From: an uncultured Candidatus Saccharibacteria bacterium
GTDB taxonomy: Bacteria > Patescibacteriota > WWE3 > UBA101185 > UBA10185
Assembly (NCBI GenBank): GCA_964490125.1
Contig: CAZBAJ010000001.1
Span: 3,573-67,572 of the forward strand
DNA length: 64,000 nt
Reading direction: 5' to 3'
The position numbers and the translations under genes are program-made. Shown one piece after another: positions 2,555 to 56,777 of this stretch. The notes beneath the pieces were generated by a model. The model had not been told where the DNA came from. It made no database searches and was given only the letters and a program-made list of their open reading frames with translations. Position 1 is the first letter of the stretch. The number at the start of each line of letters is the position of its first letter.

Positions 2555-3678
2555 TGCCAGAAATAAAATTAGCTAAGTCCGACAAAAGCGTTATGTTCGA
2601 TAAGTCCATCCTCACAAGTCAGCCACAAAAATTTGAATTTGCAGAACTAGACGCGCTAGCCCAAAAAGTCGCCAAAGTTGAGGGCATGCCAAAAGAGTTA
2701 CGGGAGCGCATAGACAAAATGCTGAATCGGCTTAACCGCATGGCGCAAACCGGTGGTTACGCGGAGCAGTTTGACAATATTTCTCGGTATGTGGACACCG
2801 TGTCGTCAATTCCTTGGGTGGTTACAACTAAAGATCAACTGGACTTGGCAGAAACAAAAAAGTTGTTGGACAAAAATCACTTTGGCATGGAAACTACCAA
2901 AGAAAGAATTTTAGAATATTTGGCGACGATGAAACTGATGCAACGCCAGGGGGAGGACGCGGTGGCGCGCTCGCCAATTTTGCTGTTTGTAGGGCTCCAG
3001 GGTATTGGTAAAACTACTTTGGCAATTTCCATTGCAGAGGCGATGGGTCGCAAGTTTGTGCGTATCGCTATGGGCGCTATAGGTTCCGTTTTGGAGTTGC
3101 GTGGACGAAGTAAAGTGTATCCGGAGGCAGAACCGGGGCAAATTATTAAAGCGCTTATTAAAACCCAAGTGAAAAATCCGCTAATTTTGCTTGACGAAAT
3201 TGAAAAAGCTTCCGGCGAATCGGGTTTGCGGGCTGATGTTATGGCAACGCTTTTGGAAATTTTGGATCCCGCGCAAAACATCGAGTTTAGAGATCATTAT
3301 GTGGACTTTCCCGTCGACCTTAGCGATGTCATGTTTATTTGTTCTGCTAACAATTTAGGTACACTCTCCACCGCGCTTATGGACAGGATGGAGATCATCA
3401 AGCTTACTTCGTACACCGATCCGGAAAAAATTGCTATCGCTAGGGATTATTTATTTCCTAAAGTCGTTGCTAAATCAGGGCTTCAACCGGAGGAGCTTAA
3501 AATTGACCCGGATTTGTGGCCAAATATTGTACGACCATTTGGGTTTGATTCCGGCATTAGAAGTTTAAATCGTACGCTTGACGCTATTTGTAGAAAAGTC
3601 GCCAAAGAGATTGTGGAAGGCAAGTCGACTAGTGTTACTATAAACGCGTCAAACCTAAAGGAATATTTGCCAAAATAG
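2554..3678 (+). CDS. Lon-family AAA+ ATPase module lacking N-terminal LON domain and C-terminal S16 peptidase domain
   Basis: collinear with the Lon central region (ELRERI helical region, Walker A GLQGIGKTTLAISIA, LLDEIEK Walker B, sensor-2 region); only 374 aa and no Ser-Lys peptidase domain. Confidence 0.8.
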   Translation: MPEIKLAKSDKSVMFDKSILTSQPQKFEFAELDALAQKVAKVEGMPKELRERIDKMLNRLNRMAQTGGYAEQFDNISRYVDTVSSIPWVVTTKDQLDLAETKKLLDKNHFGMETTKERILEYLATMKLMQRQGEDAVARSPILLFVGLQGIGKTTLAISIAEAMGRKFVRIAMGAIGSVLELRGRSKVYPEAEPGQIIKALIKTQVKNPLILLDEIEKASGESGLRADVMATLLEILDPAQNIEFRDHYVDFPVDLSDVMFICSANNLGTLSTALMDRMEIIKLTSYTDPEKIAIARDYLFPKVVAKSGLQPEELKIDPDLWPNIVRPFGFDSGIRSLNRTLDAICRKVAKEIVEGKSTSVTINASNLKEYLPK

Positions 3679-3704
3679 GCCCAGGTCGATTGGTAATTAA
3701 ATCA

Positions 3705-4370
3705 ATGGATAAAGAGTTTTTACTTAAAGAAATTGAGAAGAGTATTAAAAGTTGCACCAAGTGTCGACTTTATAAAACCGCCACAAATGCCGTACCCGGT
3801 GAGGGAAATCCCAATAGCCAACTTGTATTTATAGGTGAGGCGCCAGGAGAAACCGAAGATCAAACCGGTCGACCTTTTGTGGGGCGGGCGGGGCGACTTT
3901 TGGAAACCTTACTTGCAAAAATCGGTTACAAGCGGGAAGATGTTTGGATTGGCAATATTATTAAGCACCGCCCGCCCCAAAACCGCGATCCGCTCCCCGA
4001 CGAAATCCTAGCCTGTCAACCTTACCTTGCCGAGCAACTAAAAATCATGTCGCCCAAACTTATTGTTACACTTGGTCGCTTTGCCTTGTCACACTTTTAT
4101 AGTGATGGTAAAATATCCCGTGATAAAGGAAATTTGATTCAAACTGCCAAGTTTAGCGTTTTTCCCGTTTATCACCCGGCGGCTGCTTTAAGAAGTCCAC
4201 AAATGTATAAAGACCTAGAAAACGATTTTTTAAAAATTCCGGCGGTTTTGGCAAATTTAGCCCTTACAAAAAATCTAAAACAGGGTAAACTAAATATGTC
4301 GACAAATTTGGAGAAAGGGAACAAGCAACCGTACGACAACGAGAAAGACGGTCAACAAAGACTTATATAG
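3705..4370 (+). CDS. uracil-DNA glycosylase, family 4
   Basis: CTKCRLYKTATNAVPGEGNPNSQLVFIGEAPGETED...GRAGRLL motif set typical of family-4 UDG; ATG at 3705 preferred over upstream TTG at 3690. Confidence 0.85.
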   Translation: MDKEFLLKEIEKSIKSCTKCRLYKTATNAVPGEGNPNSQLVFIGEAPGETEDQTGRPFVGRAGRLLETLLAKIGYKREDVWIGNIIKHRPPQNRDPLPDEILACQPYLAEQLKIMSPKLIVTLGRFALSHFYSDGKISRDKGNLIQTAKFSVFPVYHPAAALRSPQMYKDLENDFLKIPAVLANLALTKNLKQGKLNMSTNLEKGNKQPYDNEKDGQQRLI

Positions 4371-4372
4371 CT

Positions 4373-6070
4373 ATGCAATTATACGACTCTAATGCCGGCA
4401 AGCCCGCGCTTAAAATAATAACCTTAAGTGGTACAGAAAATGTCACCAAAAATTTAACCGTTTATGATTGTGGCGACGATATTATCGCGGTTGATTGTGG
4501 GATAGGCTTTCCCGATTCCGATATGCGTGGTGTGGATCTAGTTTTGCCGGATTTTACCTATCTAAAAGAAAACTCCCACCGATTTAAAGCGCTGTTTATA
4601 ACCCACGGACATGAGGATCATTTGGGCGCGGTACCTTACCTATTGCAGGAAGTTAATGTACCAATTTATTCGTCCCAACTTGTTTTGGGTTTTCTAACGG
4701 ACAGACTTAAAGAAAAATTTGACGAAAAACTTACCGGCATTTCTCTAAACACGCTTGACCCTACTACCAAAGATGTCCAGATTGGCAATTTTAAGGTGTC
4801 GGCTTTTAGAATTAACCACAGCGTTCCGCGTTCCATGGGTTTAGCTATTACTACGCCTCAAGGCACGGTTTTGCACATGGCGGACTATAAAATTGACTGG
4901 ACGCCGGTATTAGACCAGCCTATTGACCTTGGAAAAATTGCCCGCTACGGGGATGACGGGGTTTTGTGTTTACTGTCTGACTGTTTGGGGGCGACTACGG
5001 AAGGCTACTCAAAGTCGGAACAAACTCTAAACGATACTTTTGGCGATCTTTTTGAAGAAAAAGAAGGCAGGCAAATGCTTATAACCACCATCTCGTCAAA
5101 CATTTCCAGAATGCACCAAATTATTGTCGCTGCGCTAAAGCATAATCGTAAAATCGTTTTAGCAGGTCGGTCCATAGACCAAAGTATGCGGGTTGCTATG
5201 AATTTAGGTTATGTTAATTACGACAAGGATATTTTTGTGTCCGATAAAGACGCGTCAAGCTTTGCCAAAAATGAATTGGTATATATTATTGCCGGCTGTT
5301 ACGGTCAACAGGGTTCCGCGTTGGATAGGGTAGCTCGTAATCAGCACGACAATATACAGTTGCAGAAAGATGCGGTGGTAATTTTTTCCGCTGACCCCAG
5401 TCCGCCAAGTGTAAGAGAAGATGTTGAGCGACTTATTGATACGCTGACTCTTGAAGGCGCGGAGGTTATTTACGGCGCTATTCAGGAAAATTTGCATGTT
5501 TCTGGTCATGGCCCGCGCGGGGATTTAATTACTGTTGCCAGTGTTGCCCGGCCAAAATATTTTATTCCTATTGGCGGAACCGTTTCTAAAATGCGTGCTT
5601 ACACCAACATGGTAGAGGCCTTAGGTTACACAGAAAAATCGGTTTTTGAATCGCGTGAGGGCGAGTCCGTAATCTTTGAAAACGGTCAAGCTAAAAAAGG
5701 TCCCACAATAGAAACAGAGCTTATTATGGTAGGACAAAATGGGGAAGGTGAAATCCACGAAACTGTTGTAAAAGACCGCCAACGACTAGCTAACGACGGT
5801 GTTTTTGTGGTCATTCTGCCGGTGTCCAAAGATAAAAAGAAGTTGGTGGGCAAAGTAGAGGCGGTTACTAGAGGCTTTGTGTTTGTAAAGGAGTCTAAAG
5901 AACTTTTGGACAAGTCGACCCAGTTTGTAACAAAAGCCTTTGAAAAACACATAGCCAAAAGCGACGATTGGGGTCACTTGCGTTTTAAACTAGAGCGGGA
6001 AATCCAACAATATCTCCAAAAAGAAACCGGTGCCACACCATTGGTACTAGTCCACTCGATTGTGGTTTAG
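4373..6070 (+). CDS. rnj: ribonuclease J (metallo-beta-lactamase / beta-CASP)
   Basis: HGHEDHLGAVPYLL metal-binding motif, beta-CASP region, length about 565 aa. Confidence 0.9.
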   Translation: MQLYDSNAGKPALKIITLSGTENVTKNLTVYDCGDDIIAVDCGIGFPDSDMRGVDLVLPDFTYLKENSHRFKALFITHGHEDHLGAVPYLLQEVNVPIYSSQLVLGFLTDRLKEKFDEKLTGISLNTLDPTTKDVQIGNFKVSAFRINHSVPRSMGLAITTPQGTVLHMADYKIDWTPVLDQPIDLGKIARYGDDGVLCLLSDCLGATTEGYSKSEQTLNDTFGDLFEEKEGRQMLITTISSNISRMHQIIVAALKHNRKIVLAGRSIDQSMRVAMNLGYVNYDKDIFVSDKDASSFAKNELVYIIAGCYGQQGSALDRVARNQHDNIQLQKDAVVIFSADPSPPSVREDVERLIDTLTLEGAEVIYGAIQENLHVSGHGPRGDLITVASVARPKYFIPIGGTVSKMRAYTNMVEALGYTEKSVFESREGESVIFENGQAKKGPTIETELIMVGQNGEGEIHETVVKDRQRLANDGVFVVILPVSKDKKKLVGKVEAVTRGFVFVKESKELLDKSTQFVTKAFEKHIAKSDDWGHLRFKLEREIQQYLQKETGATPLVLVHSIVV

Positions 6071-9124: not shown

Positions 9125-9180
9125 GAGTGGGTATTTCTAATTTTTATTTTATCAGTACATATTCCAAGACAGCTTTTCAG

Positions 9181-42747: not shown

Positions 42748-42783
42748 TTGTTTTTAGTTTAAAGCCTTTTATACTTTAATTCA
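42748..42783 (+). promoter_or_regulatory. promoter TTGTTT-16-TATACT for HelD-like gene, leaderless geometry
   Basis: -35 42748-53, -10 42770-75, ATG 42783; AT-rich junction DNA. Confidence 0.45.
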
Positions 42784-44795
42784 TGACCTACAAGGAAATA
42801 TATTCCTTTGAAAATAAGGTGCTTAAAGGTTTTATAGGTAGCATAGAAGAATTTATTAAAAATGAGGCTTTTGAGTTAGATAACATCTTAAAACAATATG
42901 AGAAGGAGTTTAGAAAGGTGAATGAAGGCTGGAATAATGAGGATAGAGCAGAAGCCATCTATTTAGCGAACGAACTGTTAAGACGAAACCTGTTTCAAGC
43001 TCGAACTTCTTATCTAGGTGCATTACGCACTACTGAAAATTCGCCATATTTTGCTCACATAGATATACTACACCAACCATCAGGAATGTTGGAGACCTTT
43101 TATTTAGGTAAGGTCGCTTATACTTCAAAAGATAAGGAAATAGCTATTACTGATTGGCGAAGCCCCGTAGCCTCACTGTATTACACTTACGCTTTTCCTA
43201 CCAAAAATGCAGAATACTCCGTTGTTGTAGATAAAGACCCCGTAGAGATAGAAAAATATGTCTGCGAGCTTGTGCTTAGAAGAGCAATAGACATTGAAAA
43301 CAAAAGGCTTGTTAATGTTTTTGATAGTGGGAATAAATTTATGCTTTCTAAAATTGAACAAAAAGCAGGCGGTTTGCTCGAGGATATTATTGAAACCATC
43401 CAGCTAGATCAAGATCTGATTATTCGCCTACCTTTATATAATAATATTATTGTCCAAGGTGTTGCAGGAAGCGGTAAAACAACCCTAGCTTTACACAGAG
43501 TTTCGTATCTTTTTTATAACTATGCCCGTTTACTTAAACCACAAAACACCTTGTTTCTGTCATCCTCAAAAACGCTTATAAACTATTTAGCCAAAAGCCT
43601 TCCTGGAATGGGTATAACTGATATTAATTGTTATTCCTTACGAGACTTTTTACTTAAAACTTTAGTAGAAAACGGTATTAAAGTTAAACCTCGTGCTCAA
43701 ATTCAGCCTATCGGAGACTTGGCTGAGTTTACAGATAAGTTTGATAACTTTTTGGATGCTACTGAGGTTAGATTGTTAGAAGATTTGGATTCAAGCTTAT
43801 TTGATAGATTTGCACTTAAAACTTACAACCTGAAACGCGCAAGGTCCCGCCTGACTTCAAAATCTTATATGGAAAAACTTGATACACTATCCAATGATTT
43901 AGCCGAGATGAATAAAGAGTTAAGATTGTATGATGACCCTGCAACGCAGTACGATGAGGCACGCATTCACGGTGTTAAAAAAACCATTAAGGTACTTAAA
44001 AACCAGCTCGATCCTGCTAAATTGTACAGCAATTTTTGTCTTTACGATTTGAGTTTAAATCACTTGTCTGCCTTATATCTATTGGCGGATAGATTAGGCG
44101 CCATTTCTTATAAGGATTACGATTTGGTCTTTGTGGATGAAGCTCAAGATTTTAATCCTCTACATTTAAGATGTATAAAAACACTCTCATCTAGGAATGT
44201 CTTTAATTTTTTTGGCGACTTAAATCAGGCAATTTACAGTAAAGATCACATTAAATCGTGGGACTGCATTTCTGATATGTATGGTATCAATAAATTGCAA
44301 CAATTTAGTCTTACCAGAAGCTACCGTTCAACTAAGAGCATAGTTTCTAAAGCCACGGATATATTAAGAGCAAAAGGAATTACTGATAATCTTCCTGAAC
44401 CCGTTTCTCGTACCGGAGAACCGACAATTGAACAAAGATTTGATCGTTTAGATAGCATGATGGCGACTCTTGTCGATGCTGTAAAACAGGTAAGAAAACA
44501 CAGAGCTAAGTCTATTGGCATCATCTGCTCGTCACAAAGTCAGGCTGATATTGTCAGCAGGCATTTTAGAGCTAAGGGGATGCAGTATTTTAGTATCACC
44601 GAAGGTTTCGACGATTACTCCAAATACGGCATTTTTATCGTAGCACCAAGCCTGGTTAAAGGGTTAGAATTTGACACCGTTTTTATTTTAGATGCCGGGG
44701 GCGGTGAGTTTGCTGATGTTGACGAGGGTCATTTTCGTAAATTTGTGGCAATGACGCGTGCAATGAGTAGCTTATACATATATAGCCTAAATTAA
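42783..44795 (+). CDS. UvrD-like SF1 helicase, HelD / helicase IV-like
   Basis: N-terminal domain with YFAHIDI and ITDWRSPVASLYY (HelD-type DWRAPIA.LYY motif); Walker A GVAGSGKTTLALHR; VFVDEAQDF; C-terminal RSYRST, VKGLEFD, MTRA motifs. Confidence 0.8.
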   Translation: MTYKEIYSFENKVLKGFIGSIEEFIKNEAFELDNILKQYEKEFRKVNEGWNNEDRAEAIYLANELLRRNLFQARTSYLGALRTTENSPYFAHIDILHQPSGMLETFYLGKVAYTSKDKEIAITDWRSPVASLYYTYAFPTKNAEYSVVVDKDPVEIEKYVCELVLRRAIDIENKRLVNVFDSGNKFMLSKIEQKAGGLLEDIIETIQLDQDLIIRLPLYNNIIVQGVAGSGKTTLALHRVSYLFYNYARLLKPQNTLFLSSSKTLINYLAKSLPGMGITDINCYSLRDFLLKTLVENGIKVKPRAQIQPIGDLAEFTDKFDNFLDATEVRLLEDLDSSLFDRFALKTYNLKRARSRLTSKSYMEKLDTLSNDLAEMNKELRLYDDPATQYDEARIHGVKKTIKVLKNQLDPAKLYSNFCLYDLSLNHLSALYLLADRLGAISYKDYDLVFVDEAQDFNPLHLRCIKTLSSRNVFNFFGDLNQAIYSKDHIKSWDCISDMYGINKLQQFSLTRSYRSTKSIVSKATDILRAKGITDNLPEPVSRTGEPTIEQRFDRLDSMMATLVDAVKQVRKHRAKSIGIICSSQSQADIVSRHFRAKGMQYFSITEGFDDYSKYGIFIVAPSLVKGLEFDTVFILDAGGGEFADVDEGHFRKFVAMTRAMSSLYIYSLN

Positions 44796-46002: not shown

Positions 46003-46554
46003 ATGTCTAAATTGTTTTTAAAAACTTTTGTTGGATTAGTCGTATTGGGTGGATTGGTTTATTACAGCGTGCAAAATAATGTCCGACTATTTTTTGTTGT
46101 TACGGGTTCCATGGAACCTGTGATTCCTACAAAGTCGATTATTTTATCTAGAAAAATTTCTGGAGACACCGTAAAAGCAGGTGCGGTTATTGTTTTTAAC
46201 GATCAAGCTACTAAACATGTTACGGCGCACAGAGTTAAGGAGGTTATAGCGGAAGGTTTTGTAACCAAAGGCGATGCCAACGAGTATCAGGATCGTAGTT
46301 TAGTCCAGCCAGCTGAATTGTTGGGGCGGGTATTTTTTGTCGTCCCTATTGTTGACGCTGTAAGCGTTTTCACCCAAGTCGGACTATTAATACTGATCTT
46401 TATGCTAGGTGTTTTAGTACGGAGATTTTTGGTATGCTTAAAGCATGGTTTTTCCTGTCCGACCGCAACACTTAACGCGCTTTTTAGACTTAGTGTTTTT
46501 AGGCGCCCCAAGGCGACTTTTTGTAATAGGTCGACGGGTTTTGGCGCTTACTAA
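46003..46554 (+). CDS. signal peptidase I, archaeal/ER type (SipW-like)
   Basis: VVTGSMEP (Ser), AHRV (His), KGDAN boxes of SipW-type peptidases; N- and C-terminal TM helices. Confidence 0.8.
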   Translation: MSKLFLKTFVGLVVLGGLVYYSVQNNVRLFFVVTGSMEPVIPTKSIILSRKISGDTVKAGAVIVFNDQATKHVTAHRVKEVIAEGFVTKGDANEYQDRSLVQPAELLGRVFFVVPIVDAVSVFTQVGLLILIFMLGVLVRRFLVCLKHGFSCPTATLNALFRLSVFRRPKATFCNRSTGFGAY

Positions 46555-49000
46555 TTATGAGACTTCGTTTAGCCTGCATCTGCGGTTGATTTTAACGCCG
46601 TTGTACGGGGATTATACCAAAGCCGGTAGAGTCATTGGTTTGGTTTTTAGGTTGCTGGCAATTTTTTACGGCCTCTTTGTTTTATTGTTTTTGGGTTTGG
46701 TAGTTTTGGTGTCGCCGTTGCTTTGGTATTTTGCTTTGTTTGGCGTATTTTATGTATTTAGATTGTGGGCGGTACTGGGTTTTATAGCGTTTTTTGCCTT
46801 GTGGTGGAAGTATACGCAAAATAAACCGACAAAGTTGGGAGAATATCGTCCGTGGGTAGCTGATGTCGTCCAAAATATTAAAATTAGGGGGAATTTAGAG
46901 GTTAGGGATTTTATTACTTCCCCGGTGCTTGCGGACTTTTTTAGTCGGTTGGAACTTACCAAAACCGATTTTGCTAACGAGCTTACCAAACTTTACTCCT
47001 ATGAGGAGTGCGTTAGACAAATATCTACTTGGGAAATTAAAGCCAAAGACTACTTACCAAAATTTGAGTCACTTTTTATAGAACCGGAGCAGGTGTTTTT
47101 GGCAGTTTTGTCGACCTTACCTAATTTAGAAAGATTTATGGCTAAGTACAATTTAATACTTAGCGACTTTGAAGGTTGCGCCAAGTGGTTAATAGAGCGG
47201 CGCGACGATAAGGAACGGGCGCATGTTTGGCAGGACTATTACAAACTGCCGGTAATGGGCGGAATTGGTAAGGGATTAACGGGCAGAGTAACGCCGGATC
47301 TGGACTCGGTGTCCACGGATTTTACCCAGTTAGTCAAAAAGGGTTTGGTAGAAAAAACCTATTGGCGTAAAGAGGAAATCAAGCGCGTAGCGGATCTTTT
47401 GGGTGGGTCTAACAGGAATGTGTTGATTGTAGGCGCACCCGGTGCCGGCAAAACCGGCATTGTTAAAGGCATTGCTTGGAGCGTAATTAGAGGAACGCAG
47501 TTTGACCAGTTAAAGTTTAAACGGATTGTAAGTTTAGAGGTCGGCAAGGTTCTGGCGGGAACAAAAAGCGCCGGAGATGTGGCGGACAAGCTTAAAAAAG
47601 CGGTGGAGGACGCTTTGGGCGCGGGTGATGTTATAATTTTTGTGGACGACATTCACACGCTTATTGCCGGTTCCGCGGTTGAGGATACCAAAACCAGCTC
47701 TGCCTACACTGTTCTTACTAATTATCTGGCGGATGGTCGGTTGCAATTTATTGGCGCCACCAACATAGAAAATTATCGTAAATATATAGAACCAAACGGT
47801 TCGTTTGCTCAGCTGTTTCAAATTGTCGAGGTCCCCCCGTCGTCCAAAGAAGAAACCTTAGAAATAATAAAAGTTAAAGCGGAAATTTTGGAGCAACAGT
47901 TTAAAGTCAAAACTTCCTTTACTGCGCTTACCAAAATTGTGGAGCTGGGTGACAAGCTAATTCACGAGCGGGTTTTTCCGGACAAAGCGGTGGAGATTTT
48001 AAATAGGTGCGTTTCGCAGGTTGCAAAAAGTACGCACTTTGTAACCGTCGATTTGGTTTTGCAAACGCTTTCAGAGATTACGCATATTCCGGTGTCGGCG
48101 GTTACTAACGATGAGTCGCAAAAACTGCTAAATATAGAAATGGAGATGAAAAAGCGGGTTATCGGCCAGGACGACGCCATAAACATGATAGGTTCGGCGC
48201 TTAAACGGGCGCGGGCGGGTATTAGAAACGATAAAAAACCCATGGCAAGCTTTTTGTTTGTGGGAACAACGGGCGTGGGAAAAACGGAAACGGCAAAAAC
48301 CTTGGCGCGGGTGTATTTTGGTGACGAAAAGCTAATGATTCGGCTTGATATGAGTGAGTATCAGCAGGTTGACAGTATTGACAGGCTAATTGGCGCGCCC
48401 AACGGTTCCACTAAAGGTGTGTTGACGGAGGCGGTTAGAAGTCGCCCATTTGCCCTAATTCTGTTGGACGAAATTGAAAAGGCGCACCAAAACATACTGT
48501 TGGCTTTTTTGCAGGTGTTGGACGACGGCAGACTAACGGATTCTTCTGGCACAACGGTTGATTTTACCAATACCATTATAATAGCAACCAGCAATGTGGG
48601 GACCCGGTCAATTCAGGAGGTTTTTGGCAGAAACGGCACTTTTGAGGAAATGAAGGAAGTTGCTACAAAGGATGTCCGGGAGAAATTTGCCCCGGAGTTT
48701 TTAAATAGGTTTAACGGGATTATCGTATACAAGCCGCTTTCTATGGAATCGGTTCAAAAAATTGCGGACATCATGCTTGGTAGTGTAAGAAAAATGGCGG
48801 AGGAAAAAGGCATTAAAGTTAGTTTTAAACCGGAGCTTATGGGGGAACTTTTAAAGCGCGGTTATAGCCCGGAGTGGGGCGCCCGGCCCATGGCGCGGGT
48901 AATAGAAGAAAGCGTTATGAACTATCTGGCCATTAAAATTTTGGCAAAGGAGATTGTGGCAGGCGATTCGGTGGAGTCAGGGACGGAGGTTTTTAGCTAG
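46541..49000 (+). CDS. membrane-anchored Clp/Hsp100-like ATPase with two AAA+ modules
   Basis: N-terminal multi-TM region replaces Clp N-domain; NBD1 LIVGAPGAGKTGIVKGIA..IFVDDIH; NBD2 LFVGTTGVGKTETAKTLA..LLDEIEKAH; sensor EFLNRFNGIIVYKPLS. Start uncertain: no in-frame ATG after sipW stop, so TTG 46541 or 46586 is assumed; ORF-track ATG at 46445 overlaps sipW by 110 nt. Confidence 0.75.
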   Translation: MALTNYETSFSLHLRLILTPLYGDYTKAGRVIGLVFRLLAIFYGLFVLLFLGLVVLVSPLLWYFALFGVFYVFRLWAVLGFIAFFALWWKYTQNKPTKLGEYRPWVADVVQNIKIRGNLEVRDFITSPVLADFFSRLELTKTDFANELTKLYSYEECVRQISTWEIKAKDYLPKFESLFIEPEQVFLAVLSTLPNLERFMAKYNLILSDFEGCAKWLIERRDDKERAHVWQDYYKLPVMGGIGKGLTGRVTPDLDSVSTDFTQLVKKGLVEKTYWRKEEIKRVADLLGGSNRNVLIVGAPGAGKTGIVKGIAWSVIRGTQFDQLKFKRIVSLEVGKVLAGTKSAGDVADKLKKAVEDALGAGDVIIFVDDIHTLIAGSAVEDTKTSSAYTVLTNYLADGRLQFIGATNIENYRKYIEPNGSFAQLFQIVEVPPSSKEETLEIIKVKAEILEQQFKVKTSFTALTKIVELGDKLIHERVFPDKAVEILNRCVSQVAKSTHFVTVDLVLQTLSEITHIPVSAVTNDESQKLLNIEMEMKKRVIGQDDAINMIGSALKRARAGIRNDKKPMASFLFVGTTGVGKTETAKTLARVYFGDEKLMIRLDMSEYQQVDSIDRLIGAPNGSTKGVLTEAVRSRPFALILLDEIEKAHQNILLAFLQVLDDGRLTDSSGTTVDFTNTIIIATSNVGTRSIQEVFGRNGTFEEMKEVATKDVREKFAPEFLNRFNGIIVYKPLSMESVQKIADIMLGSVRKMAEEKGIKVSFKPELMGELLKRGYSPEWGARPMARVIEESVMNYLAIKILAKEIVAGDSVESGTEVFS

Positions 49001-49022
49001 TGTTTATTATATAATTACGACT

Positions 49023-49580
49023 ATGGGGGACGAAGCCATGAATACAAAAAACTATATTGAGGAACTTAGAGCAGAAATCGACCAAATCCCCAACGAATCC
49101 ATGCGACTTTGTATGCGGGATTATTTACAAGCGCGGGAGCAAACCAGAGATATTCTAGCATTGGTTCCGGAGGATTTGTTGGACTATAAAGTTGCGCCAG
49201 GTGAAGAAGTCCAATCCCTTAGGGAAAATTTTGCAGAACTTGCACGCGTGGAAGCTAGTTTAATTAGAGGTTTACAAAGTGGACGAAGGGTACACAGTGG
49301 CGGTCACAATGTCCTGCCCGAACTACCCAAGAAAGAAGAGATTTTAAACGCTTATGAAAAATTGGATCGTGAAATGTTTACTTTGCTAAAAAATCCAGCC
49401 TTTGATCCCAAAGATACCTTTATTTATGCTGGAGAAAATGGAACCGAGCAAACTCTTAGGAAAGGCGGATCAGTTTGGTATTTCTTTTATCACGAAATGA
49501 AGGAATTGGGGTCAATAAGGGCAAAGCTGGATGGTGTTGGAATAGAACCGCCAGAATCCTACAAAAAGGCTTGGGGTTAA
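49023..49580 (+). CDS. hypothetical protein (possibly DinB/helical-bundle-like)
   Basis: ORF directly after Clp-like gene; ATG 49023; no confident family assignment. Confidence 0.45.
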   Translation: MGDEAMNTKNYIEELRAEIDQIPNESMRLCMRDYLQAREQTRDILALVPEDLLDYKVAPGEEVQSLRENFAELARVEASLIRGLQSGRRVHSGGHNVLPELPKKEEILNAYEKLDREMFTLLKNPAFDPKDTFIYAGENGTEQTLRKGGSVWYFFYHEMKELGSIRAKLDGVGIEPPESYKKAWG

Positions 49581-49582
49581 TA

Positions 49583-50470
49583 CTACCCATGGATTATTCT
49601 AAACTTTCGGTTTGAGTTAAAAATTCTTACTAATTTTTCAAAATTTTCATCGGGGTTTTGCAGTAGGCGTGCTAGGTTGTCTATTTCTCGTAGGTCGTTT
49701 TCTTTTATTGTTGGGAATACTTTTAAAAAGGCCATATCTACGGTGTTAGTATAAATAGGCTCATTATTCATTAGGCAGTGAAAATCGTAAAAGAGTTCCC
49801 ATGCTATGACGACTAGTCCTTGCGTACCTCCACTATTTTGAAAATAACCCGGATTAACTTTGCCGCTCCTTACCCTAAGCCAAGCATCAGCCGAGAAATC
49901 AAATAAGTCTTTAGGTAAGTCGTAGGGGTCGAATTTAATATAAGGTTCTATGCTGACATCGACATCTATAGATATCCAGCGGCTTTCAACAATATTCCAA
50001 TACTGGGTTATCCAATGATCCCAACTGCACCCCTTCATATCTTCGTATTCGAAATAAGGAGCAAAACCCGATCTGACGCGAGCGGGAATCCCCCTTGTTT
50101 TTAGCATCGATGCCACAAGTATTGCTACATTTCTACAACTAACAATTAAGCTATTTTCTTCTGTACATTCTAAAGTTAGACCCCGTGGGTCTCTCCTAAA
50201 AAGCTCCGAAAGCATCGAAGATGTCGTTGTGAAAACATCGTCCTCTCTGCACCTGTACCAAGGTACTTTTGTCATATCGCCATAGCGCAGGTCTTTGTTG
50301 GTTTGGGTGTTTCCGATTTCCAGAGCGTGTGCGTCGATGACACTTTTTCTAATTAAGTATCCAATTTTCTCTATGTCACTCGTTGGCAAACTCTTTAGAT
50401 AATCGGCATAACAGCCGGGAAAGGTTGCGTGCGAGTATTTTGTGTAGTAATCCAAGATAGTTTGATTCAT
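49583..50470 (-). CDS. transglutaminase-like cysteine-protease-fold protein
   Basis: VSCRNVAILVASMLKTRGIPARVRSGF (Cys), SWDHW (His), downstream Asp: Cys-His-Asp core of transglutaminase-like superfamily. Confidence 0.65.
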   Translation of the reverse strand: MNQTILDYYTKYSHATFPGCYADYLKSLPTSDIEKIGYLIRKSVIDAHALEIGNTQTNKDLRYGDMTKVPWYRCREDDVFTTTSSMLSELFRRDPRGLTLECTEENSLIVSCRNVAILVASMLKTRGIPARVRSGFAPYFEYEDMKGCSWDHWITQYWNIVESRWISIDVDVSIEPYIKFDPYDLPKDLFDFSADAWLRVRSGKVNPGYFQNSGGTQGLVVIAWELFYDFHCLMNNEPIYTNTVDMAFLKVFPTIKENDLREIDNLARLLQNPDENFEKLVRIFNSNRKFRIIHG

Positions 50471-50507: not shown

Positions 50508-51305
50508 TCATTCAATCGGTAAGAAAATCTCAAAAACTTGTTGGGTTGTGTCTGCGTTTACTTTCCAATATATTTCAAAGTCGGAAACTTTATTTTTCAC
50601 TTTGATTCTGTTGATCCTGCAATATTTTTCCAACTCTTTCCAAAACAGTGAAAGCATTTCTCCAGCACCACTGTGTTTATAAGAAATCACCTTTCCTGGG
50701 CTAAAGGTCATATGTCGTACAACATTCTTAAACTCCGGTTTTATGGCGATATCTTTGTCACTAAAAACGCATATTTTAATGTGGCAATTTTTTGGACGAT
50801 AGCCCTGATCCTCAAAAACAGCCATTGTGGTTAAACCGTCGTGAGGTTTTTCGATCATATTTATTAGCTCGCTACAATACATGCCGATTTTTGAGTAGGC
50901 GCCTATTTTGTCGATGTAGTAAACGCTAAGAGGTTGAAATACCGAAATTTTAGGTTTGATCATGGTCCGATTTGTTTTAAGATTTTCCAAGAAATTATCA
51001 ATATTTTTTAAGTTAAATTCTAGAGTACTCATTTCCTTTAGTATTGTCGGGCGTTTTTCCTTAAATAGTTCAACCAATTTTCCATGATTATTTAGATACT
51101 CCTTTATTTCTTTTAGAGAAATACCTAGCGTTGTGAGTAGTAAAACCATCTGATAATCTAAAATCTGTCTTTGGGAATAATACCGAAACCCCCGCAAGTC
51201 GATCCTTTCCGGTTTTAGGACACCTTTTTGGTCGTAGAATAAAATCGTTCGTTTTGTTGTACAGGCGAGTTTTGCGAACTCGCCCGGTGTTATAAAAGCG
51301 TCCAT
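50508..51305 (-). CDS. MerR-family transcriptional regulator with C-terminal GyrI-like effector-binding domain (BmrR-like)
   Basis: N-terminal MerR HTH (ITPGEFAKLACTTKRTILFYDQKGVL), long coiled linker, about 150-aa C-terminal domain of GyrI-like size. Confidence 0.8.
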   Translation of the reverse strand: MDAFITPGEFAKLACTTKRTILFYDQKGVLKPERIDLRGFRYYSQRQILDYQMVLLLTTLGISLKEIKEYLNNHGKLVELFKEKRPTILKEMSTLEFNLKNIDNFLENLKTNRTMIKPKISVFQPLSVYYIDKIGAYSKIGMYCSELINMIEKPHDGLTTMAVFEDQGYRPKNCHIKICVFSDKDIAIKPEFKNVVRHMTFSPGKVISYKHSGAGEMLSLFWKELEKYCRINRIKVKNKVSDFEIYWKVNADTTQQVFEIFLPIE

Positions 51306-51307
51306 AC

Positions 51308-51345
51308 TTGACTATAACCTCGCGTTACACCTTATTATAGCATCC
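51308..51345 (+). promoter_or_regulatory. MerR-type promoter for the UvrA paralog: TTGACT - 19 bp - TATTAT
   Basis: TTGACT 51308-51313, TATTAT 51333-51338, 19-bp spacer, ATG at 51349; divergent MerR gene starts at 51305. Confidence 0.55.
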
Positions 51346-51348
51346 ATT

Positions 51349-53607
51349 ATGTCTAATATAGTTATAAAAGGAGCGCGCGAGCACAACCTTAAAGGTGTTG
51401 ATATAACGATACCTCGCAACAAGGTTGTGTGTTTTGTGGGTGTGTCGGGTAGCGGAAAGTCCACAATTGCCTTCGATATCGTCGCAAAAGAGGGGCAAAG
51501 GCAATATTTTGAAAGTTTGTCGGCTTATGCCCGCAGGTACTTGCAAAAGAGCAATCGTCCTGATATTGACGATATCAAGGGAATATCTTCCACAGTTATT
51601 ATTAGTCAAGACAGGCTTACCAAGAATCCGCGTTCGACTGTTGGTACTGTGACTGAAACTTACACCTACCTTAGGTTGTTGTACTCTAGAGTAGGTTGGC
51701 CTCCAATGGACTCTTCCAACTATTCGTTTAATCATCCCGACGGTTTTTGTCCAAGATGTAAGGGTCTAGGTAGGGCCATGGATGTGGACATAAATAAATT
51801 AGTCGATGTGAGTTTATCTCTTAACGAGGGGGCTATAAAATATAGCAACTGGCGAGTGAATAGTATGTATTGGAAGATTGTTAGAGAAAGCGGATATTTT
51901 GATATGGACAAAAAGCTTAAAGATTTTAGTGAAAGCGAAATGAACAAGTTGCTCTATTCCAAGAAAGAGACACTGGATGACAGGGTAGGAAACGGTGTAA
52001 TCCACCCAACCTATAAGGGTATAGTAACTCATCTGCTCGGGCGTGGTTCTAGTGCAGTTAGAAGTGTAAACGATGAGGAACTAAGCTATTTTAGTTATAT
52101 AGATTGCCCTTTGTGTCACGGTTGGAGAATAAGTCAAAAAGCTTTGGAGGTTAAGTTAAATGGATTGAATATCGGCGAAGTCGGTAATTTGCCTATCTAC
52201 GATTGTCTAAGTTTTGTGCAAAGTATTAAGCACCCGCATGCCGATGTAATTAAGCCCAGACTGGAACTCCAACTCCAGCATTTAATAAACGTGGGTGTAG
52301 GGTATTTATCACTAAACAGGACTACGGATACTCTGTCGGGTGGAGAGTCGCAAAGAATAAAAATGGCAAGACAGCTCGGTTCCGACTTGACAGAGACAAT
52401 TTATGTTTTGGACGAGCCAACTGCGGGTCTGCATCCTCGCGATGTCGACAAGGTTATTGAGAACTTAAGAAAATTAAAGGACGGCGGAAACACTGTTTTA
52501 ATAGTTGAGCATGATCCGGAGGTTATAAAGTCGGCTGACTACATCATTGAAGTTGGACCTGGCGGTGGAAAAAAGGGTGGAAACATTGTTGCAACGGGTT
52601 CTTTAACCGAGATTAAAGCCAATCCAACATCTATAACAGCCAAGTACATAAATGGCAGTGACAAGATACGGTTGCCTGAAGAATATAGAGAAAGAAACGG
52701 TAATATAAGTATTGCAAATGCTTCAACCCACAACCTAAAAAATATAAGCGTTGACATTCCGACAGGCGTGTTGGTGGCGTTAACCGGTGTTTCAGGTAGT
52801 GGGAAGAGCTCGTTGGTGGAGGAAATTTGTAGGCAGTACCAGCACAAAGTCACGCTTGTTGATCAGAGCGCTGTGGGTGCTAACCAAAGAGGCTGTATTG
52901 CTACCTATACGGGAACCTTTGACATTATCAGAAAGCTCTTTGCTCAAGAAAATAAAGTCAGCGTTAGTTTATTTAGCTACAACAGTAGCGGTGCTTGTGA
53001 AGACTGCAAAGGTTTAGGTCATATGGATGTTGATATGAATTTTTTAGGTGACATCAAGATTAAGTGTCCCAAGTGTAATGGGAAAAGGTATAAGCAGGAA
53101 GTATTGAAGTATTTATATAAAGGTAAGAGCATAGATCGGGTTTTAGAAAGTACAGTTGAGGAAGCGCTAGAGTTTTTTGATCAAAAAGAAATAAAAGTTA
53201 AGCTTGCAATGTTGGCAGAAGTCGGACTAGATTATATAGAAATTGGTCAGTCTTTGGACACCTTATCGGGCGGGGAATCTCAAAGATTAAAGTTAGCCAG
53301 TCGTTTGCAAGCAAAGGGTGAGTTTTATATCTTGGACGAGCCCACTTCCGGCCTTCACCTTGCTGATGTAGAAAAGTTACTCAAACTTTTGAATCGCCTG
53401 GTTGACAATGGGAACACTGTTTTGGTAGTCGAGCATAATTTAAAGATTATTGTGTCCAGCGATTGGGTTATCGATTTAGGACCCGATGGTGGCGATAAAG
53501 GCGGGGAACTGATCGTCCAAGGAACACCAAAAGATATTTTAAGTTGTGACCAGTCGTATACCGCAAAGTATTTAAGGGGAACGGTAAGTTTGGAAAATAA
53601 AGCTTAA
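51349..53607 (+). CDS. UvrA paralog (class II, short; DrrC/UvrA2-like)
   Basis: two ABC ATPase modules (GVSGSGKST twice), four CxxC zinc modules, ABC signature LSGGESQR twice; 752 aa, lacking UvrB-binding/insertion domains. Confidence 0.85.
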   Translation: MSNIVIKGAREHNLKGVDITIPRNKVVCFVGVSGSGKSTIAFDIVAKEGQRQYFESLSAYARRYLQKSNRPDIDDIKGISSTVIISQDRLTKNPRSTVGTVTETYTYLRLLYSRVGWPPMDSSNYSFNHPDGFCPRCKGLGRAMDVDINKLVDVSLSLNEGAIKYSNWRVNSMYWKIVRESGYFDMDKKLKDFSESEMNKLLYSKKETLDDRVGNGVIHPTYKGIVTHLLGRGSSAVRSVNDEELSYFSYIDCPLCHGWRISQKALEVKLNGLNIGEVGNLPIYDCLSFVQSIKHPHADVIKPRLELQLQHLINVGVGYLSLNRTTDTLSGGESQRIKMARQLGSDLTETIYVLDEPTAGLHPRDVDKVIENLRKLKDGGNTVLIVEHDPEVIKSADYIIEVGPGGGKKGGNIVATGSLTEIKANPTSITAKYINGSDKIRLPEEYRERNGNISIANASTHNLKNISVDIPTGVLVALTGVSGSGKSSLVEEICRQYQHKVTLVDQSAVGANQRGCIATYTGTFDIIRKLFAQENKVSVSLFSYNSSGACEDCKGLGHMDVDMNFLGDIKIKCPKCNGKRYKQEVLKYLYKGKSIDRVLESTVEEALEFFDQKEIKVKLAMLAEVGLDYIEIGQSLDTLSGGESQRLKLASRLQAKGEFYILDEPTSGLHLADVEKLLKLLNRLVDNGNTVLVVEHNLKIIVSSDWVIDLGPDGGDKGGELIVQGTPKDILSCDQSYTAKYLRGTVSLENKA

Positions 53608-53674: not shown

Positions 53675-54574
53675 TTGGCAGTAATTATGGTCCCAAAAAT
53701 AACCGAACTCCAAGCCAAGTCGATTTTTACCAAATCCGGATTGCCTGGGTCGGATTGGGTAATTAATCCGTACAACGGTTGTTTATTTGGTTGCATGTAT
53801 TGTTACGCGGCGCAAATTGCTAGGTGGAAACATCCTAATGAGCAGTGGGGTACCTATTTAGATGTCAAACTAAAAGCCCCGGAGTTGCTAAAACAAGAGC
53901 TTGCCAAGTTGGAAAAACGCCATAAAACCAAGGATTTTGGCTCGGTATTTTTTAGCTCTGTTACGGATCCGTATGTGGGCGTGGAGGCAAAATACCGGCT
54001 AACCCGGCAGTGTTTAGAGGTTTTGGCGGACTTTGGATACGCGGGTGCGGTTTCGGTTCAGACCAAGTCGCCCCTAGTTACGCGGGATATTGATATGCTT
54101 GCCCGCCTAAAAAATGCTTCTGTAGGTTTTACTATTACTTCTTTGGACGACAAAATCTCCGCTTTTTTGGAGGTAATGGCGCCACCTATAAGTCATCGGT
54201 TGGATGCGTTAAAAAAGTTGCACGACGCAGGGATTTCCACCTACGCATTTGTCGGTCCTATTTTGCCGCATTTTCTCGTCGACCAGCAGATTTTAAAGAT
54301 ACTGTTAGATGAGTTGCAGGAAGTTGGCGTGACCGAGGTTTGGTTTGAGCATATAAATTTAAGTCCAAAAATTAAGGAACGCCTGTACGACTATTTGCGT
54401 AAAAAGGCTCCGGAGTTGATTGAGGTTTTTGACCAAGCTAATACACAGGAGTATCGTAATCAGTTGGACGACTTTATTGTTGCGGAAATGAAATCCCGTG
54501 GGTTGACGCTAGGGCTTAACAAAGTGATCCACCACCGGAGTTTGCCAAAGAAAGACCTTATTAATCTTGCTTGA
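53675..54574 (+). CDS. radical SAM protein, SplB / DNA-repair-photolyase-like (COG1533)
   Basis: CxxxCxxC cluster in PYNGCLFGCMYCYA near N-terminus; about 300 aa TIM-barrel size. Confidence 0.75.
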   Translation: MAVIMVPKITELQAKSIFTKSGLPGSDWVINPYNGCLFGCMYCYAAQIARWKHPNEQWGTYLDVKLKAPELLKQELAKLEKRHKTKDFGSVFFSSVTDPYVGVEAKYRLTRQCLEVLADFGYAGAVSVQTKSPLVTRDIDMLARLKNASVGFTITSLDDKISAFLEVMAPPISHRLDALKKLHDAGISTYAFVGPILPHFLVDQQILKILLDELQEVGVTEVWFEHINLSPKIKERLYDYLRKKAPELIEVFDQANTQEYRNQLDDFIVAEMKSRGLTLGLNKVIHHRSLPKKDLINLA

Positions 54575-54664: not shown

Positions 54665-55408
54665 TTAAGGAGTTATTTCCTTTCTCCAACAGATAAAATC
54701 CTTAATATCGAAGATGTCGAAGATGAATAAACCCTCCTTTTTAAGCTCGTTTAGTTCGGCCGAAATTCTTCCAGCCGTCCCAAAAACTACAGCGTTTCTA
54801 TTGCTTTTTAAGATTCTTCTAAGCGGGTCGTAAAAGTCGCTGTCTCCACTCCACAATATAAAATTTTGGGTTTTTCCTTTTTCGCTTTCCAAGAGCATGT
54901 CCACCGCCATCTCGACATCAAAGTTGCATTTTCTCTCCTCGATAAAATATTCTCCCCTTCTGTTCATATCTACAAAACAACCATTTAGGTATTTGATTGT
55001 TGGTGAGGTATATCTTCTAAGTAAGGCTGGGCTTATAAATTGGCGAAGTAACTCTGTTGAAGTCGGTACGATCCTTCTTGCGTCTATTTTTAATCTCATT
55101 ATCTTTACGGGTTTTGTTTGCAATGTGTAACCCAGTCTATTTATGTCATATATTTCTTTTTGCGCGTTAGGGTCGTTTTTAAGGTAGCCGTTGTAAAGGC
55201 TAACCGATTTAACGGTATCGAAAGAGTCCAAGAACTGTTTTAGCCTCTTTAATTCAATATGCCAACCAAGCTTTGTACTCCAAGGTCTTACATTAGCATA
55301 GTCAATATAAACCGCGGTAGGTTGGGCAAACACGGCTTCTAGTTTTGTTATTACATTGGGATGTAAATTAGCAAGCACCTTTATTTTGTCGGTTTTTGGT
55401 GTAAACAT
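54665..55408 (-). CDS. NYN-domain (LabA-like PIN-fold) protein
   Basis: AVYIDYANV..., FDVEMAVDML, WSGDSDFYDP acidic motifs. Confidence 0.7.
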   Translation of the reverse strand: MFTPKTDKIKVLANLHPNVITKLEAVFAQPTAVYIDYANVRPWSTKLGWHIELKRLKQFLDSFDTVKSVSLYNGYLKNDPNAQKEIYDINRLGYTLQTKPVKIMRLKIDARRIVPTSTELLRQFISPALLRRYTSPTIKYLNGCFVDMNRRGEYFIEERKCNFDVEMAVDMLLESEKGKTQNFILWSGDSDFYDPLRRILKSNRNAVVFGTAGRISAELNELKKEGLFIFDIFDIKDFICWRKEITP

Positions 55409-55601: not shown

Positions 55602-56777
55602 ATGTTAATAGAACTCTCCCCCGACCAAGATCTTGCCCGCAAGTTTATTATGGATTGGTACAACTCAAAAAGTCGCCCGCCGTACATTACTTTGGGAGGC
55701 TATGCGGGCACGGGCAAGACCACGCTCATTACTTATTTACGGCGCCAGCTCAAAGTCGACCATAAAAAGCTAAAAGTGGCGTTTTGTGCTTATACGGGCA
55801 AGGCCACGCAGGTTTTAAAACGCAAGCTGGCGGAGCATAACGCTGTGCATTTTGGCGACGAAGTGCGGACGATCCACTCGCTTATTTACAAAGCTATAAC
55901 GGACGAACATGGGTTTATTATTGGTTGGCGACGGCGGGACAGCCTGGACACGGAGCCTAATTTACTAATTGTAGACGAAGCAAGTATGGTTGATCAGGAA
56001 ATTTGGCAGGACTTACTTTCTTACCATGTACCTATTATAGCGGTGGGCGACCATGGTCAGCTTCCCCCCGTGTCGGGTGACTTTAACTTAATGCAAAACC
56101 CGCACTTGAAGTTGGAAAAAATCCATCGCCAGGCGGAGGAAAATCCAATTATTAAACTTTCTGTTATAGCACGGGAAACCGGTTTGATACCGCACGGTGA
56201 CTACGGCGACCATGTTTTTAAAGCAACGCCTGCTGATGCGTCCACCATGCTAGAAAACATTTTTTGTAACTTTTCTTCCGACCAGTTAGTTTTATGCGGT
56301 TATAATTCAACCAGGGTTAAGCTAAACGCCACAATAAGGAACGCCTTGGGTTTTGAAACGCCGGAACCGTACCCGGGTGACAGAGTGATTTGTCTGCGCA
56401 ACAATAGGCAAAAAGAGGTTTACAACGGGATGTTGGGGTACCTAGAGTATATTAATAGGCTGTCTAAAAATAAATACCTAATTGAGGTCGCCATGGATTC
56501 TTATGAAGAAGGTCATACCTATTCCGGAGTTGTTTCCGCGGAGCAGTTTGGCGCGCAAAAAACACTAAATAACATTTTAGGGTACGCAAAAACTAAGGAG
56601 ATGGACTTGTTTGACTTTGGGTACGCGCTTACAGTTCACAAAGCGCAGGGGAGTCAGGCAAAAAAGGTGGTGGTGTTTGAGGAGCGCTTTTCCCGCGACA
56701 CTGAAGAGGACTGGCGCCGTTGGCTGTACACCGCTGTCACCCGCGCGGAGGAGGAACTTTTAATTGTAGGGAATTAA
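55602..56777 (+). CDS. RecD/Dda-like SF1B DNA helicase
   Basis: GGYAGTGKTTL Walker A, LLIVDEASMV Walker B, C-terminal ...VTRAEEELLIV. Confidence 0.8.
   Translation: MLIELSPDQDLARKFIMDWYNSKSRPPYITLGGYAGTGKTTLITYLRRQLKVDHKKLKVAFCAYTGKATQVLKRKLAEHNAVHFGDEVRTIHSLIYKAITDEHGFIIGWRRRDSLDTEPNLLIVDEASMVDQEIWQDLLSYHVPIIAVGDHGQLPPVSGDFNLMQNPHLKLEKIHRQAEENPIIKLSVIARETGLIPHGDYGDHVFKATPADASTMLENIFCNFSSDQLVLCGYNSTRVKLNATIRNALGFETPEPYPGDRVICLRNNRQKEVYNGMLGYLEYINRLSKNKYLIEVAMDSYEEGHTYSGVVSAEQFGAQKTLNNILGYAKTKEMDLFDFGYALTVHKAQGSQAKKVVVFEERFSRDTEEDWRRWLYTAVTRAEEELLIVGN

Follow-up and report, generated by a model that had tools for sequence, protein, structure and literature searches.

The divergent gene pair and its shared control region

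In a 64,000-nucleotide stretch of DNA from an uncultured Candidatus Saccharibacteria bacterium assigned to WWE3 (contig CAZBAJ010000001.1 of assembly GCA_964490125.1; the whole stretch is hereafter called the window), a gene for a MerR-family regulator and a gene for a short UvrA paralog lie back to back and are oriented divergently. The regulator gene occupies 50508..51305 on the minus strand and encodes 265 amino acids (aa), with its ATG at 51305-51303, whereas the UvrA paralog gene occupies 51349..53607 on the plus strand and encodes 752 aa. Both genes were placed from the open reading frame (ORF) listing and by direct reading, and the starts given in an earlier note on this DNA (51305 on the minus strand for the MerR gene and an ATG at 51349 for the UvrA paralog) were exact on re-reading. 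The intergenic region of 43 bp has the sequence ACTTGACTATAACCTCGCGTTACACCTTATTATAGCATCCATT.

The intergenic region contains a promoter directed at the UvrA paralog gene. On the plus strand, it consists of the −35 hexamer TTGACT at 51308..51313, the 19-bp spacer ATAACCTCGCGTTACACCT at 51314..51332, and the −10 hexamer TATTAT at 51333..51338, which ends 10 nt 5′ of the ATG. This arrangement, TTGACT-19 bp-TATTAT, had been claimed in the earlier note and was found in the window exactly as claimed. For comparison, 33 promoters from 31 related loci were aligned with the window copy. All of the aligned promoters read TTGAC(T/A), then exactly 19 bp, then TAnnnT; both the TTGAC and the 19-bp length held in 33/33 related promoters. 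The −10 of the family can be written TA(T)n(A)T, in which T1, A2, and T6 were invariant, and free variation was seen in the final 3 bp of the spacer and 3′ of the −10. When both strands of the 64-kb window were searched for TTGACW-N19-TATNAT, a single match was found, against 0.03 expected from shuffled sequences (3 of 100 shuffles contained any match). The possibility that the spacer is 17 rather than 19 bp was not borne out, because the gap contained no usable pair of hexamers at 17-bp spacing (CTTATT and GACTAT were both poor) and the relatives always had 19 bp. As expected, a standard promoter scan with spacers of 16-18 bp did not list this site, and it returned fewer matches than shuffled sequences did. 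All 28 of 28 characterized MerR promoters have spacers of 19-20 bp (PMC7722741), and the combination of such a spacer with a palindromic or pseudopalindromic operator is taken as the criterion for a MerR-type promoter (PMC7722741, PMC8113463). Both features were found here, with 19 bp in 33/33 promoters and a 17-bp palindrome at −24.

The distance between the −10 and the ATG was 6-10 nt in nine loci with short gaps, including the window, and was also 10 nt at the second promoter copy of locus L001; therefore, an mRNA that is leaderless or has a leader of 3-4 nt is predicted in these nine short-gap loci. In most loci with long gaps, the leader was 23-33 nt and sometimes contained GGAGG. The UvrA paralog gene of the window has no Shine-Dalgarno sequence, and its mRNA is predicted to be nearly leaderless, with ~3-4 nt ahead of the start codon.

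The predicted MerR operator of the window is a 17-bp dyad, TATAACCT-C-GCGTTACA, at 51313..51329, which belongs to neither strand and is centered at 51321 (approximately −24). The family palindrome in the spacer is TATAACGT-N-ACGTTATA, also 17 bp, and its consensus written through is TATAACGTAACGTTATA. Most dyads of the relatives had 6-8/8 positions paired, and their center was at spacer position 8, which corresponds to −24. The search for a dyad operator in the spacer that the earlier note had proposed was thus answered in two ways, as the palindrome was perfect or near-perfect in the relatives but imperfect in the window (5/8 positions paired). In the structure of BmrR with RNA polymerase, the operator center and the main kink are at −24 (PMC7722741), and the comparison with BmrR, likewise proposed, gave the same operator center in both systems. 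Some relatives carried symmetric, compensatory variants of the half-sites, namely TATTACGT/ACGTAATA in L011, AACCT/AGGT in L031, and ACGC/GCGT in L030; such symmetric changes are expected if a dimer reads the two halves. The promoter-operator site was unique in the 64-kb window.

Turnover in the control region was observed in the nearest relatives. Two tandem promoter-operator copies ~70 nt apart were present in L058 (849-960), and in L001 (3146-4000), as well as in L045, a 253-aa ORF was inserted between two promoter-operator copies. Because of its position between the duplicated copies, this ORF would likewise come under the control of the MerR operator; its L001 version had no Pfam match. 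In long-gap loci with a leader of ~28 nt, for example L006, L008-L010, L012, and L014, a conserved CCTATAA(C) was seen a few bases past the −10. This motif has the sequence of the left half-site of the operator and lies within the divergent merR promoter, in its spacer, making it a candidate for an extra half-site or for a part of the merR promoter.

On the minus strand, a divergent merR promoter with the extended −10 TGCTATAAT is predicted at 51342-51334, where it shares 5 bp with the plus-strand −10. The minus-strand TATAAT scored 6/6 in most loci. A TGn extended −10 was present in most short-gap loci, the window included, and in the long-gap loci a TTGACA −35 sits 16-18 bp upstream of the minus-strand TATAAT. 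The start site of merR is predicted to fall inside the operator, and autorepression is therefore predicted. In the mer systems of Tn21 and Tn501, the promoters PmerR and PmerT are divergent and overlapping, one operator occupies the 19-bp spacer, and the regulator represses its own gene. The present locus resembles these systems in its divergent regulator and target genes, its overlapping −10 regions, its one operator in a 19-bp spacer, and a geometry that predicts autorepression; unlike them, it has an effector domain that would accept an organic ligand rather than a metal, and its target is a DNA-binding ATPase.

Domains and descent of the regulator and the UvrA paralog

The regulator consists of a winged helix-turn-helix (HTH) domain at residues ~5-72, a dimerization helix at 77-112, and a GyrI-like effector-binding domain at 118-264. 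In the Pfam scan, MerR_1 (6.3e-13) and MerR (1.5e-7) both exceeded their cutoffs, and a MerR HTH was found in 25/25 family members. The GyrI-like family reached 21 bits against a cutoff of 26 in the window protein, spanning positions 3-154 of the 155 in the profile; it was matched in 18/25 family members (best 6.9e-12), and Cass2 was matched in 4. No TipAS domain was matched by Pfam in the regulator or the 25 family members. An AlphaFold2 model built from the family alignment had a mean predicted local distance difference test (pLDDT) score of 92.5 and contained the winged HTH, the helix at 77-112, and the beta-alpha-beta-beta duplication. In this predicted monomer, the coiled-coil helix had a pLDDT of ~89-96, in agreement with the full-length BmrR and EcmrR matches. 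A Foldseek search of the PDB with the full-length model returned BrlR, EcmrR, and BmrR first (E values of 1e-15 to 1e-13) and then the albicidin-binding STM3175. With the C-terminal domain alone, the matches were CtaZ, CTR107, the C-terminal domains of EcmrR and BmrR, and SbmC, with target-normalized template modeling (TM) scores of 0.66-0.80 (0.7-0.8 for CtaZ and CTR107). A profile search of the PDB placed EcmrR, SkgA, and BmrR at the top and also matched MtaN and TipAN. The invariant residues of the C-terminal domain were Y137, E146, F164, Y169, Y209, W222, E224, E226, D242, E244, and Y246, an aromatic and acid-rich set that may accommodate a hydrophobic or cationic ligand.

Thus, the regulator shares with BmrR (B. 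subtilis), EcmrR, and BrlR the order of winged HTH, antiparallel coiled coil, and GyrI-like domain, together with a 19-bp spacer and a palindrome at −24. EcmrR, with its GyrI-like C-terminal domain, responds to drug-like compounds by activating a promoter with a 19-bp spacer (PMC8113463). The differences from these three proteins are an identity of only ~18-20%, an operator of the TipA/Mta type with the core ACGT-N-ACGT, a target that is a UvrA paralog and not an efflux pump, and the divergent arrangement of the gene pair.

The origin of the DNA-binding part was clarified by the distribution of the exact 22-nt promoter-operator TTGACTATAACGTNACGTTATA, which was found at 39 loci in metagenome contigs. 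In 23/39 of them, it was accompanied by a Patescibacteria-type MerR, with a UvrA paralog in 21, another divergent gene in L050, and a uvrA remnant in L070. In 14/39 loci, all non-Patescibacteria, it lay directly upstream of a different MerR gene whose N-terminus was 30-37% identical; two of these 14 proteins were scanned, and both had TipAS C-termini. The loci in which TTGACTATAACGTNACGTTATA precedes TipAL/Mta-type genes are L041-L044, L046, L049, L051, L061, L062, L064-L066, and L073; in L051, a third type of MerR is divergent from an M19 dipeptidase gene. Because the TipAL/Mta loci have the same 22-nt operator and related N-termini, the DNA-binding module and the operator were assigned to the TipA/Mta class. 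With TipAL and Mta, the regulator therefore shares the exact promoter-operator and N-terminal domains that are ~30-37% identical, and it differs from them in having a GyrI-like rather than a TipAS C-terminal domain. Moreover, the TipAL/Mta promoter drives the gene of its own regulator, whereas here the same promoter drives a separate divergent gene. The earlier note had given the regulator a GyrI-like ligand domain of the BmrR type, which holds for the effector domain (18/25 members and the fold); the DNA-binding domain and operator are not of the BmrR class. Judged from these comparisons, the regulator is a domain-swapped combination of a TipA/Mta DNA-binding module and a BmrR/EcmrR effector domain, and one operator class serves several types of effector domain.

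The UvrA paralog was aligned with class I proteins. Against B. stearothermophilus UvrA, residues 1-119 and 122-745 aligned to chain positions 21-139 and 282-955, so that the missing block of ~145 aa corresponds to the UvrB-binding domain and zinc module 1. Against E. coli UvrA, residues 119-264 were missing, including the CxxC and CxxH pairs of zinc module 1, and the UvrA profiles of NCBIfam matched in pieces that skipped profile positions ~120-265 (PRK00349 scored 834.7 bits against a cutoff of 1147). The Pfam scan found no match to PF17760 (UvrB-binding) in the paralog and did match the UvrA_DNA-bind insertion domain. Only four CxxC motifs were present, at 134, 253, 550, and 573, and there was no Cys/His pair at the 119-122 junction. 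Zinc module 2 (C134, C137, C253, C256) and zinc module 3 (C550, C553, C573, C576) were retained, as was the insertion domain (~140-250), which aligns to class I. Both ATP-binding cassette (ABC) modules were complete, with the Walker A motifs at residues 31 and 480, the signature motifs at residues 329 and 639, the Walker B motifs at residues 351 and 659, and the H-loops at residues 386 and 694. A class IIa UvrA is defined by the lack of the UvrB-binding domain (PMC9328131, PMC10192343), and the paralog has the architecture of that definition. A class I UvrA was ruled out by these alignments, in which the UvrB-binding domain and zinc module 1 are missing.

A distance-based neighbor-joining tree was calculated from 705 shared columns of 19 sequences. 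This limited sampling comprised class II proteins from plasmid records (Listeria, Staphylococcus, Clostridium, Enterococcus, Deinococcus, Streptomyces, and Roseivivax) and class I proteins (E. coli, Bacillus, Acetoanaerobium, Streptomyces, and Parabacteroides), and Ecm16 and DrrC were left out. Class I was separated from class II plus Patescibacteria with 99-100% bootstrap support, and the Patescibacteria family, including the 49%-identical protein P0383, formed its own clade (99% bootstrap). Thus, the paralog is class II in its architecture and in its descent, as the earlier note had proposed. The same note had likened it to DrrC and Ecm16, and this likeness stood for the class II architecture, but the proteins of Patescibacteria form a separate clade, outside the sampled Streptomyces/Deinococcus subclade, and the gene is not in an antibiotic cluster. 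With Ecm16, DrrC, and related class IIa self-resistance proteins of Streptomyces, the paralog shares the lack of the UvrB-binding domain and zinc module 1 and the presence of both ATPase modules, the insertion domain, and zinc modules 2 and 3. It differs from them in its separate clade, with ~45% identity to the sampled Streptomyces class II protein, in its position outside a biosynthetic gene cluster, and in its dedicated MerR sensor. In the PDB search, it also scored lower with Ecm16 (604 bits) than with class I UvrAs (616-655 bits), followed by D. radiodurans UvrA2 (538 bits), and this order was unchanged when only the fragment covering the junction and the insertion domain was used. The tree, from which Ecm16 and DrrC were left out, gives no sign of kinship with Streptomyces self-resistance proteins.

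D. radiodurans UvrA2 and the plasmid-borne uvrA2 genes of Firmicutes likewise encode proteins of class II architecture, at 43-48% identity, but the regulators next to them are YafY, MarR, TetR, or none. Among the plasmid records, a divergent YafY gene was seen in Staphylococcus xylosus (L079 1895-2866), a downstream MarR gene in Clostridium tagluense (L080 5253-5672), and an upstream TetR gene in Roseivivax (L089 2429-2998). The neighbors of the class II uvrA of Streptomyces globisporus C-1027 were genes for a halogenase and an antiporter. PADLOC profiles of the MADS anti-phage system (mad1-mad8) also matched the pair in the window, mad3 with 274 bits on the UvrA paralog, mad1 with 25 bits on the MerR protein, and mad8 also on the pair. 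This candidate was rejected, as the profiles were made from alignments of HHpred/PDB homologues and catch generic ABC ATPases and HTH proteins; a MADS operon has mandatory mad6, mad7, and mad8 plus a methyltransferase, and no other mad genes were found nearby.

Conservation across Patescibacteria and genomic setting

Hundreds of close homologues were found for both proteins, and every named one belongs to Patescibacteria (candidate phyla radiation, CPR), including Roizman-, Beckwith-, Shapiro-, Gottesman-, Ames-, and Woesebacteria, Dojkabacteria, and WWE3. The closest relative found was the WWE3 genome L001, whose UvrA is 87% and whose MerR is 67% identical. When the MerR alignment was searched against one reference genome per species, 34 loci were obtained, of which 32 were informative; in 30 of these 32, a UvrA paralog of 740-750 aa divergently adjoins merR. 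The two genes were also divergently adjacent in 21 further metagenome contigs that contain both. The gap between them was usually 39-74 bp, with a full range of 39-855 bp. In L038, whose UvrA is 49% identical, the promoter-operator was retained despite a distance of 460 bp to merR. The flanking genes were not kept among the relatives (in a Beckwithbacteria genome, the pair lies among genes for ribosomal proteins, SSB, YchF, and tRNA synthetases), so the conserved unit, mobile within the chromosome, is only the two genes and their shared control region. These comparisons confirm that the pair is real and conserved across CPR. A search of 1.84 billion representative proteins returned mostly duplicated UvrAs of 1,600-1,900 aa, the family amounting to about one cluster at 50% identity. 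In full-text searches of the literature, no paper was found in which the terms UvrA, MerR, and GyrI-like occur together, and nothing was found on the pair in Patescibacteria; the only two papers that contain "UvrA-like" as well as "MerR" bear unrelated titles. Neither component is new in kind, as one is a multidrug-type MerR sensor and the other a class II UvrA; what appears to be new is a MerR switch that has a DNA-scanning ATPase and not a pump as its output, conserved over a large uncultured lineage.

Departures from the usual arrangement, including decayed and rewired forms of the cassette, were also observed. In L050 (motif at 1387), the Patescibacteria-type MerR/GyrI gene is divergent not from uvrA but from a cation-diffusion-facilitator gene (Pfam Cation_efflux, 8e-42), and in L070 (motif at 9143) only about the first 37 codons of uvrA remain. 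In L030, a MerR/GyrI relative with 37% identity (merR at 3938-4813) is paired with a 436-aa "half UvrA" on the minus strand (2659-3969), in which ATP-binding domain I and the insertion domain are fused to the C-terminal end of module II, giving a single ABC module. A convergent gene for a 575-aa ABC exporter (700-2427) adjoins it.

The G+C content of the window was 42%. Pfam scans of its larger ORFs identified domains of RNA polymerase alpha, PNPase, FtsK, RNase J, and RF-1, and because of these housekeeping domains the window was regarded as ordinary chromosome. Neither Rfam families nor tRNAs were matched in the 64-kb window. Several neighbors of the cassette have a DNA-repair flavor, namely genes for a radical S-adenosylmethionine (SAM) protein with a weak match to spore photoproduct lyase (SPL; 53675-54574, plus), a NYN nuclease-like protein (54665-55408, minus), a RecD-like helicase (55602-56777, plus), a DinB-superfamily protein (48954-49580, plus), a transglutaminase-like protein (49583-50470, minus), and a UvrD-like helicase (42783-44795, plus). 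No terminator-like site was seen between the stop codon of the UvrA paralog and the radical-SAM gene, and the two may therefore be co-transcribed. The DinB, transglutaminase, radical-SAM, NYN, and RecD neighbors were absent beside the cassettes of the relatives, except for transglutaminase and DinB in L016. In addition, 46445-49000 (plus) encodes an 851-aa ClpB/ClpC-like double-AAA+ protein, the first ~120 residues of which appear by eye to form hydrophobic membrane-spanning segments in place of the usual Clp N-domain; the 3′ end of this ORF runs 47 nt past the predicted start of the next one.

Proposed mechanism, alternatives, and meaning

On the basis of the gene architecture, domains, fold, operator and promoter conservation, and synteny described above, we propose, with a probability of about 0.6, that the locus is a two-gene, MerR-switched stress cassette in which a UvrB-independent UvrA paralog acts against DNA-bound toxins. 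From these features, we infer how the promoter is repressed and activated, what kind of ligand is sensed, and what the UvrA paralog does biochemically, as follows. A regulator dimer would sit on the 17-bp palindrome within the 19-bp spacer and, without ligand, hold the promoter of the UvrA paralog closed; it would also limit its own divergent promoter, as the merR start lies inside the operator. A small, probably planar, hydrophobic or cationic molecule would enter the GyrI-like domain, upon which the dimer would kink and under-twist the spacer, as has been shown structurally for the ligand-dependent switch of BmrR and EcmrR to the DNA-distorting activator form (PMC7722741, PMC8113463). The −35 and −10 would thereby be brought into line, and RNA polymerase would transcribe the UvrA paralog, here on a nearly leaderless transcript. 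The product would be a dimeric DNA-scanning ATPase that is unable to recruit UvrB. Most likely, it would recognize toxin-bound or intercalated DNA and use ATP to remove the toxin or protect the DNA, actions shown for Ecm16 and reported for DrrC (PMC9328131, PMC10192343). The resistance that Ecm16 confers is independent of UvrA, B, C, and D and depends on ATP hydrolysis and on the insertion domain (PMC9328131, PMC10192343). The inducible genotoxin-displacement module that the earlier note had suggested would be consistent with these steps. The proposal is also supported by the situation in other phyla, where class II uvrA genes lie beside other small-molecule-responsive regulators (TetR, MarR, and YafY).

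Several observations weigh against this proposal. The window dyad is the most degenerate of 33, with four rare substitutions and a G:C center where 31/33 copies have A:T, and because of this degeneration regulation in this genome may be weaker than in the family at large. The UvrA paralog is 43-48% identical to class I and class II proteins about alike, and in the tree, drawn without Ecm16 and DrrC, its clade lies outside the sampled Deinococcus/Streptomyces class II subclade. The cassette of the window is surrounded by housekeeping genes and lies outside any biosynthetic gene cluster, and what class II UvrA does physiologically outside antibiotic producers is unclear (PMC9328131). Furthermore, if the genomes that carry the cassette were without class I UvrA, UvrB, and UvrC, the paralog might have a broader role.

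Such a broader role would be that of a general DNA-damage sensor of the lineage, in which the short UvrA replaces or backs the canonical UvrA and MerR answers a general stress signal rather than an exogenous drug. We consider this explanation rather unlikely. It would fit the vertical conservation of the cassette amid housekeeping genes, the equal similarity of the protein to class I UvrA and to other class II proteins, and the SPL-like radical-SAM, RecD-like helicase, and DinB-family genes nearby, although these repair-like neighbors are not conserved. Minor roles of class II UvrA in ultraviolet (UV) repair have been reported in Xanthomonas and Pseudomonas (PMC9328131), but Ecm16 fails to complement a uvrA mutant (PMC9328131), and a protein without the UvrB-binding domain has no known route to incision. 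In addition, no class I uvrA, uvrB, or uvrC was seen in the 64-kb window or in 605 kb of DNA from relatives, which would favor a replacement; however, the absence of nucleotide excision repair genes is not established. A tblastn search with E. coli UvrB gave no match in the 605 kb and was uninformative, and the literature yielded nothing on class I uvrA or uvrB in genomes carrying the cassette. Finally, the GyrI-like domain is a small-molecule pocket and not a redox or metal sensor.

The pocket itself might be the main resistance factor, with the regulator sequestering the ligand in its GyrI-like domain (compare AlbA, STM3175, and TipAS-type proteins) and UvrA being accessory or not induced by the ligand. 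This seems improbable to us. The albicidin-binding STM3175, the drug-binding GyrI-like CtaZ, CTR107, and SbmC among the Foldseek matches would agree with sequestration, as would an operator of the TipA/Mta class, the members of which autoregulate. However, the 19-bp-spacer promoter is directed at uvrA and not at merR, which has a separate promoter (17-bp spacer or extended −10) with its start under the operator, a geometry that predicts autorepression rather than self-amplification; moreover, the conserved partner in the family is the UvrA paralog. As for the view that the promoter and dyad are chance matches in an AT-rich gap between genes that are mere neighbors, the window dyad alone is indeed weak, since a match to TATAAC-N5-GTTATA with one mismatch is expected 0.22 times per window. 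The full pattern, at the expectation of 0.03 per window given above, is another matter, and the site stays the same base for base across 33 promoters, although the rest of the gap differs in both length (39-855 bp) and sequence. Chance is thus already refuted by the comparative data.

If the cassette does act against DNA-bound toxins, its meaning might reach beyond this genome. Tentatively, and at somewhat less than even odds, we suggest that it is a vertically inherited core defense in Microgenomates-type Patescibacteria, WWE3, and Dojkabacteria, in which a chimeric MerR senses DNA-targeting natural products of hosts or neighbors and switches on a UvrB-independent ATPase that clears the DNA. 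If true, this would be the first dedicated "DNA decontamination" sensor-effector circuit outside antibiotic producers. It may be the main route of survival against intercalators in genomes with few efflux or repair options, and the paralog would perhaps be the only UvrA-type protein in these cells. Class II UvrA proteins are widespread (PMC9328131), and a conserved, dedicated sensor wired to one of them is the clearest genomic hint yet that they respond to chemical DNA-binders and not to UV damage. The 22-nt operator-promoter shared with TipAL/Mta genes shows that MerR effector domains are swapped as modules while the unit of DNA-binding domain and operator stays fixed. As the operator, promoter, regulator, and effector together take up <3.2 kb, the cassette should be transferable to E. 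coli or Bacillus as a reporter for inducing ligands, and such a ligand screen could reveal the toxins that uncultured ultra-small bacteria meet in nature.

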